IMG/VR virus record: IMGVR_UViG_3300035102_000507
DNA: 64,000 nucleotides
Direction: 5' to 3' (one strand)
Origin: a virus
Shown: in pieces, positions 25,540 through 54,648 of the stretch
Numbering within the stretch: position 1 is the stretch's first letter
How the letters are laid out: each line of letters begins with the position of its first letter
Program-made: the position numbers and the translations under genes
Notes under the pieces: generated by a model
Database searches by the model: none
Told to the model about the DNA's origin: nothing
Seen by the model: only the letters and a program-made list of their open reading frames with translations

Positions 25540-25659
25540 ATTGATTGGTGTTCCGTGGTTAGCCTCTGGTTTTGATCATCCCAGGAAGATGTGCCCCGAT
25601 TTCCCCTAAAGTCATGAATGGACTATAATGAGTTTTTAACCTTTTGCCGTGAGGTGAAG

Positions 25660-25821
25660 ATGGAAAGCCTTTGGGATTCATATTTTGAGGAACTGATTGT
25701 GTGTCTGACAATTTATGTCCTTAGAAAGGGTTGGAAGCTGCTATCCAGTTTTAGAGTAAGCGGCACAAGCAGCGAAAAATGTGTCAAAATTTCAAAATAC
25801 CGGATTATGTTCCTCAAGTAA
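25660..25821 (+). CDS. Small AT-rich hypothetical protein
   Basis: TATAAT at 25624, GAGGTG RBS, 53 aa with a hydrophobic segment. Confidence 0.35.
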   Translation: MESLWDSYFEELIVCLTIYVLRKGWKLLSSFRVSGTSSEKCVKISKYRIMFLK

Positions 25822-40394: not shown

Positions 40395-40756
40395 TGGAAG
40401 TTTTCTTGGTGCGAGTCGCGGAGACACACGTCATCGTAGGGCTGTTTGCCGTGCCTAACATGGAAGTGCTGTTCGATTTTGTCGACGAGTTTACCGACCC
40501 ATACGGTTGCGAAGCAGCCGTAGTCGAAAGCGGCTTTGGCTTCATGTACTCCGAGGACTTCACGGCAAACAAGATCAAAGCTCTAGAAGACGAGTGCGCT
40601 GTCGGCGACTATCTCGGGCCCAAAGAGCACACCCAAAGCGTTTACGACCTGACCTTTGACGCTGACGACCCGGAGCTGACGTGGTTGCCGTTTGGGCGGG
40701 AACATTCATGGGTTTGGCGGATGGGTGAAGAGGCAAGAGAGGGGGAACCGACATGA
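40394..40756 (+). CDS. Hypothetical protein
   Basis: GGAGG RBS; acidic, 120 aa. Confidence 0.55.
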   Translation: MEVFLVRVAETHVIVGLFAVPNMEVLFDFVDEFTDPYGCEAAVVESGFGFMYSEDFTANKIKALEDECAVGDYLGPKEHTQSVYDLTFDADDPELTWLPFGREHSWVWRMGEEAREGEPT

Positions 40757-40947
40757 TCGTCCGTGGCGTTGAGATCAAGAAAGGGCTGGCCAATATCGCC
40801 GAGCACTTCGGGCGCGATGTGCGGACCGTGAAGAAGTGGCAGCGCCAGGGAGCGCCTATCTATCTCGTGGACGGGATATGGACCACCGAGACCGCCGAGC
40901 TTTGGGACTGGATTAAGGTTCGAAGGCAGAGGGAGGCGGCGGCGTGA
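40753..40947 (+). CDS. Small winged-HTH protein (Nu1/MerR-like)
   Basis: GLANIAEHFGRDVRTVKKWQRQGAP...G.W...L.DW. Confidence 0.75.
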   Translation: MIVRGVEIKKGLANIAEHFGRDVRTVKKWQRQGAPIYLVDGIWTTETAELWDWIKVRRQREAAA

Positions 40948-41075: not shown

Positions 41076-41146
41076 TACATGAGGGGTACATGAGGGGGGC
41101 ATGAGGGGTACATGAGCGAACTCCGTTCAAAAAACCGGGTTATAAT
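41076..41146 (+). promoter_or_regulatory. Late promoter: four 11-bp repeats (TACATGAGGGG) then AAAAACCGGGT-TATAAT
   Basis: Repeats start at 41076, 41087, 41098 and 41109; TATAAT at 41141; no TTGACA. Confidence 0.7.
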
Positions 41147-50808: not shown

Positions 50809-51129
50809 ATGCGCGCAGGAAAACTCAGGCACATCATCACCATCCAGCGGCCCACCGACACCCGGAACGACTACGGCGAAGTTGTCGAGGGTTGGGAAGA
50901 CGTCATTACTACGCGGGCCAGTGCGGAGCCGTTGCAGGGCAGGGAGTATTTCGCGTCGCAGCAGGTGCGCAGTGAAACGACCACCCGTTTCCGCATCCGT
51001 TGGCCGGGTATGCCCATCACGCCGGATATGCGCGTGATGTTTGAAGGCCGGGCTTACGACATTGACAGCGTGATCGACCCCAATGAGCGGCATCGTGAGC
51101 TGCACGTCATGGCGGTCGAGAAGAAGTAG
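50809..51129 (+). CDS. Head-tail adaptor / head closure protein
   Basis: MRAGKLRH.I.IQ, RE.FA.QQ, F.IR, MRV.F.G..Y.I. Confidence 0.9.
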   Translation: MRAGKLRHIITIQRPTDTRNDYGEVVEGWEDVITTRASAEPLQGREYFASQQVRSETTTRFRIRWPGMPITPDMRVMFEGRAYDIDSVIDPNERHRELHVMAVEKK

Positions 51130-51152
51130 AAAAGCCCCGCCGGAGCGGGGCC
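51130..51152. terminator. Hairpin between convergent genes
   Basis: AAAAGCCCCGC-CGGA-GCGGGGC. Confidence 0.6.
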
Positions 51153-51184: not shown

Positions 51185-52078
51185 TCAGATTTTACCCGCA
51201 ATCTTCAAGGCCTGCTCCGTCTGCTTGGCTGTTTCGCTGTAAACCTCGGCGGCGACGCCCATCAGGTTATAGCAAAGCCCCATCAGGCGGTAGTAGCCTT
51301 GGAGGTGCAGGTTCATCGCGGCCTTGTTTTCCTTCGAGCCGTATTCAGCCGTCCTGATCTTGTAGCGCATGTCCTCGAAGTGGTGGCGCTGGAGCGTCAG
51401 GAATGAGTCTTCTTCGGTCTTGTAGAGGTCAAGCTCCCTGCTGAACTCCAAGAGGTCGGCGCCCGAAAGCGTCGGGGGAGGGGCCGGGAGGGCCTTGGGT
51501 TTCTGGTTTGCCTTGGCGACAACGGCGTCAATGCGTTGCTGGAGGAAGTCACAGGCCTCGCGCACCTGATCGACGGTCAGGTCGTCAACGGTCGTCACGC
51601 CGAACTTGGCGTGGATGAGCTTCCATGCATCACGGAAGGAGAGCGGGGCAAGGCCGACGTAGACCGCGACCAGGTCCTTGAGGGGGCGGCGGTCTGCTTT
51701 AGTGGAGAGGGCGCAGTGGTAACCACCTGTCTGCCGGATGGACGGCAAGACTTCCGAGGCTACCCAGTTGGTGAACCTATCGGCTTCCGGCTTGTTGGAG
51801 CGAAACGCCAGCTTGTAGACAGCGGGCTCCGAGATGACGGTGATCGGCGAATAGAGCCCACCACGACCTGTCTTTTTAGGGGGACGGAGTTTCCGCACCC
51901 CTTTCCATTCGTCAGGGACGGAAGCAAGCGTGTTGCTACGCCAGGCAATATCCAACGCGGAACAAACATCCTTCGCCACGAACCAAGGCTGTCCCTCGTC
52001 GTAGACGGTGCGGATAGGGGTTTCGTTGAAGCTGAACGGGGTGACAGCGGCACAGTCGGCTTGGGCGGTGTTAGGCAT
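51185..52078 (-). CDS. BRO-N domain antirepressor
   Basis: F.F....IRTV...QPWFVAKDVC, ISEP.VYKL.FRS.KPEA..F..WV..EVLPSIR. Confidence 0.9.
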   Translation of the reverse strand: MPNTAQADCAAVTPFSFNETPIRTVYDEGQPWFVAKDVCSALDIAWRSNTLASVPDEWKGVRKLRPPKKTGRGGLYSPITVISEPAVYKLAFRSNKPEADRFTNWVASEVLPSIRQTGGYHCALSTKADRRPLKDLVAVYVGLAPLSFRDAWKLIHAKFGVTTVDDLTVDQVREACDFLQQRIDAVVAKANQKPKALPAPPPTLSGADLLEFSRELDLYKTEEDSFLTLQRHHFEDMRYKIRTAEYGSKENKAAMNLHLQGYYRLMGLCYNLMGVAAEVYSETAKQTEQALKIAGKI

Positions 52079-52123
52079 GATGCCTCCTACTGTTTCTCTA
52101 GTGGCATCACCGAAATGAATGAT

Positions 52124-52197
52124 GCCGGGAGCTAGAACCTCAGTAGGCGAGGCTGGCTATTTTGGGCAAACGCCTTGGACATTTCACCACTCCCGGC
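52124..52197 (-). ncRNA. C4-like antisense RNA (prophage B)
   Basis: Same 74-nt scaffold as 18758-18831; loop GCCUACU in a CCUC/GAGG stem is complementary to AGUAGGC (52285-52291) and to AGUAGG over the BRO RBS (52086-52091). Confidence 0.7.
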
Positions 52198-52352
52198 AAC
52201 TTGGGTGCGAATATACCATGCCTCATGGTAGGGCCACAATGGGCAAGAGGCATGAAAAAGCCCCGGCTGTCGGGCGGGATGACCGCCTACTGGAGTTTCT
52301 AGGCTCCGTGCAGTCACCACGCCACAAACCGGGGCGGATGTCAAGGGGAAGG

Positions 52353-52688
52353 TTAGTTGCACAGGTGAAGGCCTTTTTGGATTAGTGGCATAAGGTCTCT
52401 ATTGGTGTAGTCACGGGCCTTTCTGTGTGGGTTCCCCTCGGCATCCTTTAGATTGGCGCGGTCGAACCAAGCCATAGCTTGCCCGTTGATGGCATATGTG
52501 TACCCATCAGAGCCGTTTATCCATACGGCCTTCCGTCCATTCCCGAGGTTTTTGCAGTACAGGGTTCCGCTGCTAAAGGTGAACGGCCAAACTCCACCTA
52601 AGTTTTTTTTGTACACATGGGCAGAGTTGGCGAAAGCGGGGCCAGGGGCCAGTGTTAGGGCTAGTAGGATAAAAATAGTTTTCATCAT
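52353..52688 (-). CDS. Exported YebY/DUF2511-like protein
   Basis: Signal peptide; WPFT...G.L.C and TYAING.A motifs. Confidence 0.65.
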   Translation of the reverse strand: MMKTIFILLALTLAPGPAFANSAHVYKKNLGGVWPFTFSSGTLYCKNLGNGRKAVWINGSDGYTYAINGQAMAWFDRANLKDAEGNPHRKARDYTNRDLMPLIQKGLHLCN

Positions 52689-52722
52689 GAGGGTATCCCT
52701 ACCTTTGTTTTGTTAGGAAGAA

Positions 52723-52974
52723 TCATGAGTTGGGAGGCGGGTTTTTGGAAAACGGCGGCGGCTGTGGTTCAAGCCTCTGTTTCGCCTTAGTGGTCTGTTC
52801 AGGGATGGGCGCGTCAAACTTTTTAGCAAGCCCCTCTAGAATGGCGGTTTGCTTCCTTAATTCCTGGTTGTTGGCCTTGGTCCAACTCCAGATGAAGAGA
52901 GGAGAGAGGGCCAGCATGACGCCTAGAATGAGAAATATCAACTGGACTGCACCAATACTTAGAAGGGCTTCCAT
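52723..52974 (-). CDS. Small membrane protein
   Basis: Long N-terminal hydrophobic helix; GGAGG RBS. Confidence 0.55.
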   Translation of the reverse strand: MEALLSIGAVQLIFLILGVMLALSPLFIWSWTKANNQELRKQTAILEGLAKKFDAPIPEQTTKAKQRLEPQPPPFSKNPPPNS

Positions 52975-52984
52975 CGTGCCTCCA

Positions 52985-53350
52985 TCACGGCCTAGTAACC
53001 CACACATCAACAGGAAGGCCGTATTCCTGAATGACCCGATGCACTCGACGAACATAGCGCATGTCTTTGTCTTTCTCGATGATGAGCACGATGCCGGGGC
53101 GCCTCCCGGTGTGCGCGCCGTAGAGCAAGGCTTGCCCGATGGACTCTGCCCATTTGTTGGCAAAGTCGAACTCCACCGCGTGAGTCTCCGTGAGGCAATC
53201 GCAGCGAGTCCGGTCCGGCATGACGACCTCGGTTTGCCCTTGTTCCGCTGCGCACCACCGGTCTTGATACCAAACCTCATAGTGGAGGCGTTTGGCATGG
53301 GCCAGCGGGGCGACGGCAAGCCATGCGATGAGAAAAACAAGTATGCGCAT
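52985..53350 (-). CDS. Signal-peptide protein with a PD-(D/E)XK-like motif
   Basis: MRILVFLIAWLAVAPLAHA signal; R.DC.T...AVEFD....ESIGQAL.Y. Confidence 0.55.
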   Translation of the reverse strand: MRILVFLIAWLAVAPLAHAKRLHYEVWYQDRWCAAEQGQTEVVMPDRTRCDCLTETHAVEFDFANKWAESIGQALLYGAHTGRRPGIVLIIEKDKDMRYVRRVHRVIQEYGLPVDVWVTRP

Positions 53351-53388: not shown

Positions 53389-53970
53389 ATGGGCAAATAC
53401 AGCGGAAGGGGGTGGATGAGCACCGAAGTCACCGGGATGCGCGAGCTTGACCGGGCTCTTTCAGTCCTGCCGGACAACATCGCCCAGAAGGTCCTTAAGC
53501 AGGCCGTCGCCGCGGGTGCTTCGGTCATGAAGCGCGAAGCGAAACGTAGGTGCCCCAAGAGGACCGGTCGGCTTGCGAAGTCTATTGCGATGAAGTTCAA
53601 ACGCATTGGCCGTGGCTCCCGTCGCGGCCGGGTCTTTTACCAGGTCGGCCCAAAGGAAAAATACGGGCACTTGGTCGAGTTCGGGACGGGCCCGCACATC
53701 ATCAAACCAAGCGTAAATCGTCGGATCAAATTGAAGGCGCGAGGGGAAAAGGTCTCCGACTATTGGGGGCTTGGCTACAAGGGGCGTTTCGGAAAAAAGG
53801 TAAAGCACCCCGGCGCGACTGCACAGCCCTTTTTGAGGCCCGCCTTTGACGAGTCGTCTGACCAGATCATAAAGGCCATGCAGCGCAGGATCAGGACCGG
53901 CGTTGAGAAGGAAAGCCGTAAGCTGGCTCGCAAGCGCATTGCAGCGCGCAGGGCGGCCCGGAGGGGATAG
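53389..53970 (+). CDS. HK97 gp10-like tail completion protein
   Basis: G..EL...L, RTG.LAKSI, H.VEFGT, AQPFLRPAF. Confidence 0.85.
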   Translation: MGKYSGRGWMSTEVTGMRELDRALSVLPDNIAQKVLKQAVAAGASVMKREAKRRCPKRTGRLAKSIAMKFKRIGRGSRRGRVFYQVGPKEKYGHLVEFGTGPHIIKPSVNRRIKLKARGEKVSDYWGLGYKGRFGKKVKHPGATAQPFLRPAFDESSDQIIKAMQRRIRTGVEKESRKLARKRIAARRAARRG

Positions 53971-53971
53971 G

Positions 53972-54217
53972 ATGCACGGCGCCACTCTGCTAAAGAACGC
54001 CGCAGAGCCTCACACCAACAGTGACGGACTCAGGGGGCTTGAGAATATCGCATCCTATGCTCAGTACGGGGCGAAGCTCATCCCTGAGCTTGTAGAACAC
54101 CATGGCTTCCCCGCGGAGCAGTTCATGGGCAAGTGGGAATCATCAAAGATGCTGATTGACGAATGGCGGCTAAAAAGACTCCGCTCGAAACTATGTCAAT
54201 CAGTTTCTGACGGGTAA
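53972..54217 (+). CDS. Small winged-HTH protein, paralogue of 40753..40947
   Basis: GLENIA...GFP...GKW...IDEW aligns by eye with GLANIA...GAP...GIW...WDW. Confidence 0.65.
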   Translation: MHGATLLKNAAEPHTNSDGLRGLENIASYAQYGAKLIPELVEHHGFPAEQFMGKWESSKMLIDEWRLKRLRSKLCQSVSDG

Positions 54218-54285
54218 AACTCCGCAAAACTCCGCAAAACTCCGCATACGCCGGATCGCCCAAAAAGCCGGGTTATAATCTCGGC
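54216..54285 (+). promoter_or_regulatory. Tail-operon promoter: (AAAACTCCGC)x3 then AAAAAGCCGGGT-TATAAT, leaderless
   Basis: Repeats at 54216-54245; TATAAT at 54274; ATG 6 nt later with no SD. Confidence 0.7.
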
Positions 54286-54648
54286 ATGATCCTCGAAGAA
54301 TCCATACACGCTATCCTGACCAACTCCGCGTCTGTCGCCGACATTGTTGGCAACGGAGTCTACCCCATGGTCATCCCGCAGCGCGGGAAGCTCCCGGCGG
54401 TGACGTATATGCGGGTATCCTCTCAGTACGACACCTCAGTGGACGGCACGGGATCGCGCCTTACGGCTCGGGTCCAAATCGACTGTTGGTGCCGATCATA
54501 CTCGGAGGCCAAGCGCCTGAGCGAAGCGGTGCGAAACGCCATGGTTGCAGCGGGACACTTGGTCCAGTCTGAGCGCGATGGGTTCGAGGATGATCTCTAC
54601 ATTTATAGCGTTGGCATGGACTTCTCATGCCGACACAAGGAGGCATGA
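54286..54648 (+). CDS. Tail terminator (DUF3168-like)
   Basis: VYP..IPQ...LP.VTY and R.QID.W..SY.EA motifs. Confidence 0.85.
   Translation: MILEESIHAILTNSASVADIVGNGVYPMVIPQRGKLPAVTYMRVSSQYDTSVDGTGSRLTARVQIDCWCRSYSEAKRLSEAVRNAMVAAGHLVQSERDGFEDDLYIYSVGMDFSCRHKEA

Follow-up and report, generated by a model that had tools for sequence, protein, structure and literature searches.

Analysis of the boundary between head and tail genes in a stretch of viral DNA of 64,000 nucleotides (hereafter the window) points to a promoter which lacks a −35 element, depends on an activator and would give rise to a leaderless tail-terminator mRNA, being switched on by a wHTH protein encoded immediately upstream. 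We hold this reading, which is drawn from sequence features and their conservation, with a confidence slightly above even. The promoter would be an internal one, placed at the head/tail boundary of a temperate siphophage with a Desulfovibrionaceae-type host, and the features on which the argument turns are the following.

53389–53970, plus strand: HK97-gp10-like neck/tail-completion gene (Pfam HK97-gp10_like, 4.1e-14; PHROG_5, 4.2e-31)
53972–54217, plus strand: wHTH gene of 81 aa (P0001), the proposed activator of the tail promoter
54172–54184, plus strand: AAAAAGACTCCGC, resembling the repeat and lying upstream of the array within the wHTH gene; read from the sequence, it may be an additional site
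54194–54211, plus strand: distal element TGTCAA-N4-TTTCTGAC, within the last codons of the wHTH gene
54216–54245, plus strand: direct repeat array of three exact AAAACTCCGC units, −70 to −41 relative to the predicted start; putative wHTH sites
54259–54273, plus strand: core box CCC-AAAAA-GCC-GGGT, at −27 to −13, in place of a −35 and common to the 41-kb promoter
54274–54279, plus strand: −10 hexamer TATAAT
54286–54648, plus strand: tail-terminator gene, its ATG being the predicted transcription start
54322–54329, plus strand: downstream AACTCCGC copy in the tail-terminator gene, at +37 to +44, which may be an additional site or due to chance
40753–40947, 41076–41116 and 41129–41146, plus strand: first (41-kb) unit, consisting of a 64-aa wHTH gene, TACATGAGGGG repeats, and box with −10, respectively

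When both strands of the 64 kb were searched with up to three mismatches allowed (0.01 matches expected), the 18-nt sequence AAAAAGCCGGGTTATAAT at 54262–54279 had a sole other match, AAAAAACCGGGTTATAAT at 41129–41146, and the two agree at 17/18 nt, in keeping with the near identity to the 41.1-kb promoter reported in the initial annotation. The distance of 28 bp that had been given there between the repeats and this element is right for the start of TATAAT and does not hold for the 18-nt box, which begins 16 nt after the last repeat. The window contains just three TATAAT hexamers, at 25624, 41141 and 54274. The position expected for a −35, 17 nt upstream of TATAAT, is occupied by CCGGAT, with 1/6 consensus matches, and a scan of the 40–58 kb interval with the sigma-70 consensus returned no complete promoter; the site at 54274 combines a −10 with the absence of a −35, as is characteristic of activator-dependent promoters. 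The third TATAAT (25624–25629, GGACTATAATGAG) is found near the integrase end, without a CCC-AAAA-GGG box and ∼30 nt before an ATG at 25661 that is itself preceded by GAGGTGAAG.

The ATG of the tail-terminator gene (54286) follows TATAAT after 6 nt and has no SD-like 4-mer ahead of it, as was initially described, and SD-like 4-mers are present at 19/24 late-gene starts. The arrangement TAnnnT-N6-ATG is seen at a single one of these 24 starts and at 0.6% of all ATGs in the window, and a −10 located 6–7 nt before a start codon without SD is the spacing of leaderless genes. That 54286 is the true start codon is indicated by the alignment of residue 1 with the start of the Pfam and PHROG profiles, the product matching Pfam Tail_completion_gp17 (2.5e-14) and the PHROG tail terminator. 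Protein searches with this product yielded one distant viral locus and no match in genome contigs, and a literature search on leaderless transcripts in Desulfovibrio found nothing useful.

Upstream of these elements, the 81-aa ORF does end, as previously noted, at the first of three exact 10-bp repeats, its TAA stop codon (54215–54217) overlapping the first AAAACTCCGC unit of the 54216–54245 array. TRF assigns this array a score of 62 (period 10, 3.1 copies, 100% match) and places it among the four best of the window, two of the other three belonging to the 41-kb unit. Matches to AACTCCGC number 7 in the window as compared to 3.1 expected.

Using the contigs of the nearest homologues and a scan of viral contigs, we found the same slot upstream of a Tail_completion_gp17 gene in five more phage contigs (L016, L013–15, L064/65, L066 and L067), the wHTH proteins of which show 42–62% identity across the alignments. 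The anatomy is common to all: a wHTH gene is followed by two to four direct repeats of 10–11 bp starting at or near its stop codon, then by a spacer of ∼15–20 nt, a C-rich/A-tract/G-rich box, TAnnnT and an SD-less ATG. The distance from TAnnnT to ATG is 6 nt in the window, L016, L014, L064 and L066, and 9 nt in L067, and the −10 hexamers of the six tail units read TATAAT, TATAAT, TACGCT, TACAGT, TAAAAT and TACGCT, the fixed positions being just those three that carry most weight in sigma-70 recognition. The repeats differ by phage (AACTCCGC; CTCCGYA, four copies; CNCTCC, three; AATCTTCCC, three; TAGCTNGGT, two; CCCATAC, two), and no clear residue-to-repeat correlation was apparent among the six wHTH proteins. 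In the window as well as in L064 and L067, the proximal CTCC core nevertheless precedes the −10 by 34 nt despite different intervening sequence, and L014 can be aligned to the window without gaps from the repeats through the −10. A more distant phage without a wHTH gene (L001) shows the ordinary junction, with overlapping gp10-like and tail-terminator genes and an SD present.

The DNA sequence of the distal element TGTCAA-N4-TTTCTGAC is itself retained in L016, L014 and L066, where A/T-rich codons are used. It is coding in four phages, and the L067 copy lies past the stop codon and is non-coding, 25 nt before the first repeat, which is the same distance as in the window. The element loosely resembles an IHF-type site. 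As a further observation on these loci, the wHTH ORF of L064 (L064:2701–2761) has lost the usual stop and stays open through the three CNCTCC repeats, so that the array of putative binding sites itself encodes a 17-residue C-terminal extension.

Other members of the family precede a small terminase gene (L047) or are placed between the gene for a lambda-A-like TerL and a small gene (gpW) plus portal (L018, L045 and others), and in these TerS and TerL slots, too, repeats, box and TAnnnT follow. When 13 units were compared without gaps, with the −10 as anchor, T-12, A-11 and T-7 were invariant in 13/13 units and positions 3–5 varied; the anchors were picked by eye, by which the apparent invariance of the −10 is inflated. 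Fixed T-12/A-11/T-7 with free middle positions is the signature of a sigma-70 −10. CCC (−27 to −25), AAA (−23 to −21) and GGG (−16 to −14) were each present in 8–12 of the 13 units. A PWM built from 11 sites outside the window and run over both window strands had its top site at 54257–54279 (26.9 bits, compared to shuffle maxima of 8.5–17.6); the 41-kb site obtained 14.1 bits, which is inside the shuffle range, and no third site was detected in the window, none being seen before the gp10-like gene. By these comparisons, the repeat/box/−10 unit is a conserved cis element.

In two of the units situated between TerL and gpW/portal (L018:2806–2837 and the matching L024 stretch), an 8-bp GC-rich hairpin with a T7 run extends from within the −10 hexamer to the ATG. 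Read-through RNA would hold the whole terminator, and RNA started at the promoter would lose the 5′ arm, thereby exposing the GGAGG of the 3′ arm; a terminator overlapping the next promoter is possible at these loci.

The region is absent from the nearest genome (G001), and blastn against the phage collection gave no match; its DNA was traced to oil-field, subsurface, groundwater and soil metagenomes.

The ATG of the 81-aa ORF lies 2 nt past the stop codon of the HK97-gp10-like gene and is preceded by the SD GGAGGGGA at 53961–53967. The encoded protein has no Pfam match at E ≤ 1 and likewise none in PHROG, a word-based protein search returned the query alone, an exact look-up returned no record, and a metagenome scan with the close-family alignment gave no match. 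A full HMMER search of 1.84 billion representatives retrieved 51 homologues of 57–160 aa, the alignment of which has the consensus L.G..EI..Y...S..TV..LI...GFPA.KI.G.WES.K.LID.WR, and 24/49 aligned homologues match Pfam HTH_17 (best E 4.6e-09). In a genome scan for the family, only one Desulfovibrionaceae MAG was recovered, with the member in a different context.

The AF2 model obtained with the family alignment (pLDDT 89.7) consists of a strand (residues 19–21), two helices (23–30 and 36–44), a beta hairpin (48–51 and 54–58) and then a long C-terminal helix (59–80). The top Foldseek matches were RacA, RdfS, Tn916 and Pukovnik Xis, TorI, BldC and TerS DNA-binding domains, with probabilities of up to 0.99 and E no better than 0.05. 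Based on the AF2 model and this Foldseek ranking, the 81-aa protein is, as modelled, a MerR/excisionase-type winged-helix DNA binder. The family profile gave nothing significant against PDB sequences, with no AlpA/antiterminator chain at E ≤ 1, and a homodimer prediction scored 0.00, which is evidence for neither state.

According to the model that we favour, residual late transcription would make the 81-aa activator, which would then fire the tail promoter, and the unit would act as a relay or booster, as suggested by the translational linkage of the wHTH gene to the preceding neck gene. The 81-aa protein would bind the three repeats with one monomer per helical turn and would recruit or stabilise RNA polymerase at a perfect −10 that has no −35. 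Transcription would start at the A of the tail-terminator ATG, and the leaderless mRNA would continue into the tail operon, the downstream genes of which have good SDs and should be translatable from any transcript. That the 81-aa protein is the reader of the repeats we infer from adjacency alone.

The promoter may be real and the 81-aa protein nonetheless a repressor, roadblock or timer that damps or insulates transcription, an arrangement that we regard as unlikely. Both BldC and P2 Cox are capable of activation as well as repression. The repeats overlap the stop codon of the 81-aa gene itself, and D29 Gp36, a small MerR-like phage protein bound to GC-rich direct repeats, represses downstream genes (PMC12266134). 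Against such a role, repeats confined to −70 to −41 leave the −10, the box and the start uncovered, a promoter lacking a −35 should need help, and the strict conservation of the distance to the −10 is typical of activator contact.

The activator proposed here has one relative in the window. When the family HMM was compared to all window ORFs, two matches only were obtained, the 81-aa protein (5.5e-29) and the 64-aa protein of the 41-kb unit (P0002; 1.5e-06). Direct comparison by BLASTP gave 23% identity over 52 aa (E 0.01), and hhalign of the family against the 64-aa protein gave a probability of 92.5% (E 4.9e-07). On these alignments, the two proteins are members of the same superfamily and remote relatives rather than products of a recent duplication, so that the term ‘paralogue’ of the initial annotation is correct with respect to homology and overstates closeness. 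The suggestion of cross-regulation, made because one AACTCCG also occurs in the 41-kb promoter, fared less well: this lone copy (41119–41125, about −34 to −28) is close to chance, since the window holds 19 copies (9.8 expected), and its distance from the −10 is 16 nt shorter than that of the proximal repeat in the tail promoter.

Since an identical core is accompanied by very different wHTH proteins, some common factor must read the box, and the real switch could be this common reader, be it the host polymerase or some other protein. The corresponding alternative, in which the shared box is read by one factor (the 64-aa protein or some other product of the phage, or else a host factor or sigma) and the local wHTH protein and its repeats are accessory or serve another purpose, appears improbable to us. 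In its favour, the two promoters of the window share a 17/18-nt box with unlike repeats and unlike proteins, and the box is kept across 13 units with many different repeats; the box is centred near −20, comparable to the Lpa box of P1 late promoters, which is centred at −22 (PMC3152322). Yet a wHTH gene is found directly upstream of every unit examined, and a search for the 18-nt box in 301 genomes of the same order showed no enrichment (10 matches versus about 10 in the reversed control), a chance-level count which indicates that it is no common host promoter type. The single exact match among them, in L002, lies in unrelated AT-rich DNA.

How the activator gene itself would be transcribed bears on the model of an activator-dependent tail promoter. 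The gp10-like open frame begins with TTG at 53350, the likely start being the ATG at 53389 with the SD GGGAGGG, and a 2.2-kb block of minus-strand genes (51185–53350) separates it from the head-closure gene (50809–51129). This block comprises an anti-repressor gene (51185–52078; PHROG Ant, 1e-35) and three small membrane/exported ORFs. The hairpin at 51134–51151 has the look of a good terminator on the minus strand, and as a plus-strand terminator it would be weak. Minus-strand genes are present at the same junction in L064 and L066, and because these genes are mutually non-homologous, the junction after the head-closure gene looks like a hot spot for inserted genes. The best terminator-like hairpin of the 40–58 kb interval, with 11 pairs followed by GTCTTTTACC, is located upstream of the wHTH gene, within the coding part of the gp10-like gene (53606–53631), and may be chance or an attenuator. 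With the minus-strand block and the hairpin at 51134–51151 intervening, the gp10-like and wHTH genes probably get only attenuated read-through from the 41-kb late promoter, which would provide a plausible purpose for an internal, self-amplifying promoter. Read-through can also reach the tail genes, since there is no terminator between the wHTH gene and the promoter.

The absence of a terminator between the wHTH gene and 54286 would also suit a situation without any promoter, in which the tail genes are expressed by read-through only and the conserved elements act in RNA, for SD-independent translation initiation or as a processing site, or as a DNA site with a function other than transcription. 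We consider this quite unlikely. The box is partly dyad-symmetric and small hairpins are predicted in several loci, but the window, L067, L045 and L048 have only weak ones or none, and a hairpin role of the box was rejected given that the stems are weak and inconsistent across loci. What is conserved, namely T-12, A-11 and T-7 together with the 6-nt spacing, corresponds to a −10 element, unlike a hairpin.

Members of the family are also encountered outside the tail slot. The closest homologue of the 81-aa protein by identity (P0007, 63%) adjoins an integrase. At this locus (L012:196–2853), the integrase gene is followed by the P0007 gene and then by that of the 148-aa P0005, with overlapping stops and starts between integrase and P0007; P0005 carries two tandem copies of the P0001-type domain, and another HTH_17-like ORF comes after it. 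It looks as though the family serves another purpose at L012, perhaps as part of a small integrative element or satellite.

It is very unlikely, in our view, that the wHTH protein of the window is an excisionase/RDF or a TerS/Nu1-like packaging-site binder and its repeats architectural. The fold matches to RdfS, Tn916, Pukovnik, TorI and TerS DNA-binding domains, the integrase-adjoining homologues P0007 and P0005, and a weak match of the 64-aa relative to Nu1 can all be cited for it. The neck/tail-terminator slot, however, is conserved in six phages, the integrase end of the prophage, at around 24 kb, has no AAAACTCCGC-type repeat copy nearby, and so close an association with a −10 and a start codon serves neither excision nor packaging. 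The wHTH gene lies about 30 kb from the integrase (around 24–25 kb), the other prophage end being outside the window.

Finally, a Q/AlpA-type processive antiterminator loaded at the promoter, although suggested by the late-regulator position and by a conserved element between the −35 region and the −10, like QBE/ABE, can be dismissed as extremely improbable, because such factors require an exit-channel N-terminal segment, a sigma-dependent pause site and a downstream terminator, Pseudomonas aeruginosa AlpA being Q-like and made up of eight helices, with an N-terminal ring that sits in the RNA exit channel (PMC9371919), whereas P0001 is an 81-aa wHTH protein without exit-channel segment or multi-helix architecture, so that AlpA-style antitermination was ruled out on protein size and fold, its PDB profile search contains no AlpA, and a transcript starting at the ATG leaves no obvious room for a sigma-dependent pause element.

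Among known systems, the activator-dependent tail promoter proposed here is closest in layout to that of TP901-1 Alt, a phage activator which acts on direct repeats at −76 to −32 of the late promoter (overview in PMC3152322), compared to −70 to −41 in the window. No sequence relation between Alt and P0001 was found, and Alt serves one promoter before terS. In contrast, the unit described here is internal, lies at the head/tail junction, abuts its putative activator gene and has a predicted leaderless mRNA.

With respect to fold, P0001 is of the same class as BldC (PDB 6AMA), lambda and Tn916 Xis, RdfS, P2 Cox and D29 Gp36. Small single-domain MerR/Xis-like proteins of this kind occupy head-to-tail direct repeats about one helical turn apart, and Cox and BldC regulate promoters. 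Identity of P0001 to these proteins is, however, only 8–20%, and they act in development, excision or repression; to our knowledge, none of them is a dedicated activator of a tail operon.

The late promoters of P1 (Lpa/SspA), Mu (C) and P2 (Ogr) have a sigma-70 −10, no usable −35 and a dependence on an activator, as proposed for the tail promoter here, and several of them are likewise distributed within the morphogenetic region. The position of the P1 Lpa box is similar to that of the CCC-AAAA-GGG box. These phages employ one activator for all late promoters, whereas each promoter of the window has its own wHTH gene and repeats in addition to the shared box, and the 81-aa and 64-aa proteins are unrelated to Lpa, C and Ogr.

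The Ltr regulators of Gram-positive phages (RinA, ArpU, LtrA–C) govern a single long operon starting at terS (PMC3753634, PMC3152322). They resemble the present unit in that a small activator gene is located directly upstream of the late promoter and in that allelic protein/promoter pairs diverge together. They differ in sequence, P0001 having no Pfam or PHROG match to RinA/ArpU-type families.

Extending the model beyond the single promoter, we tentatively propose, as a possibility that we consider rather doubtful, that late transcription in these phages is a relay in which the gene for a small MerR/Xis-like activator of its own stands at the end of each morphogenetic unit or ahead of it, a phage with two units, such as the present one, thereby expressing its head and tail genes in programmed order. 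Each activator would read private direct repeats and fire the next −35-less CCC-AAAA-GGG-TAnnnT promoter, with slots upstream of TerS, in the TerL–gpW/portal interval and at the neck/tail-terminator junction; the tail terminator would then be made only from the leaderless, activator-dependent transcript. A head-then-tail cascade, such as the initial annotation envisaged, is plausible from gene order alone and needs read-through to the wHTH gene.

In textbook temperate phages, all late genes are served either by a single antiterminated transcript (lambda) or by a set of identical promoters under one activator (P2, Mu, P1). Late promoters that depend on an activator, of which one phage may have several, some with leaderless starts, are known or inferred elsewhere. 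What appears to be new, as far as sequence comparison can indicate, is a previously unannotated family of MerR/Xis-like putative activators, its conserved placement at the head/tail junction together with a predicted leaderless tail-terminator gene, and the apparent presence in a single prophage of two members of this family that differ in repeat code and share one promoter core.

Taken together, the layout common to five other uncultured phages suggests that the whole unit is probably a real switch for tail genes. As P0001 has no Pfam or PHROG match, recognition of the family would improve the annotation of many metagenomic phage contigs. If the model is true, one phage would contain two activators of one family, each with its own repeat code and both acting on a shared promoter core, which would constitute a simple, sequence-readable ordering of head versus tail gene expression. 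It would also supply orthogonal activator/promoter pairs from the poorly studied phages of sulfate reducers, and would be a further instance in which an essential virion protein is translated from a leaderless mRNA.
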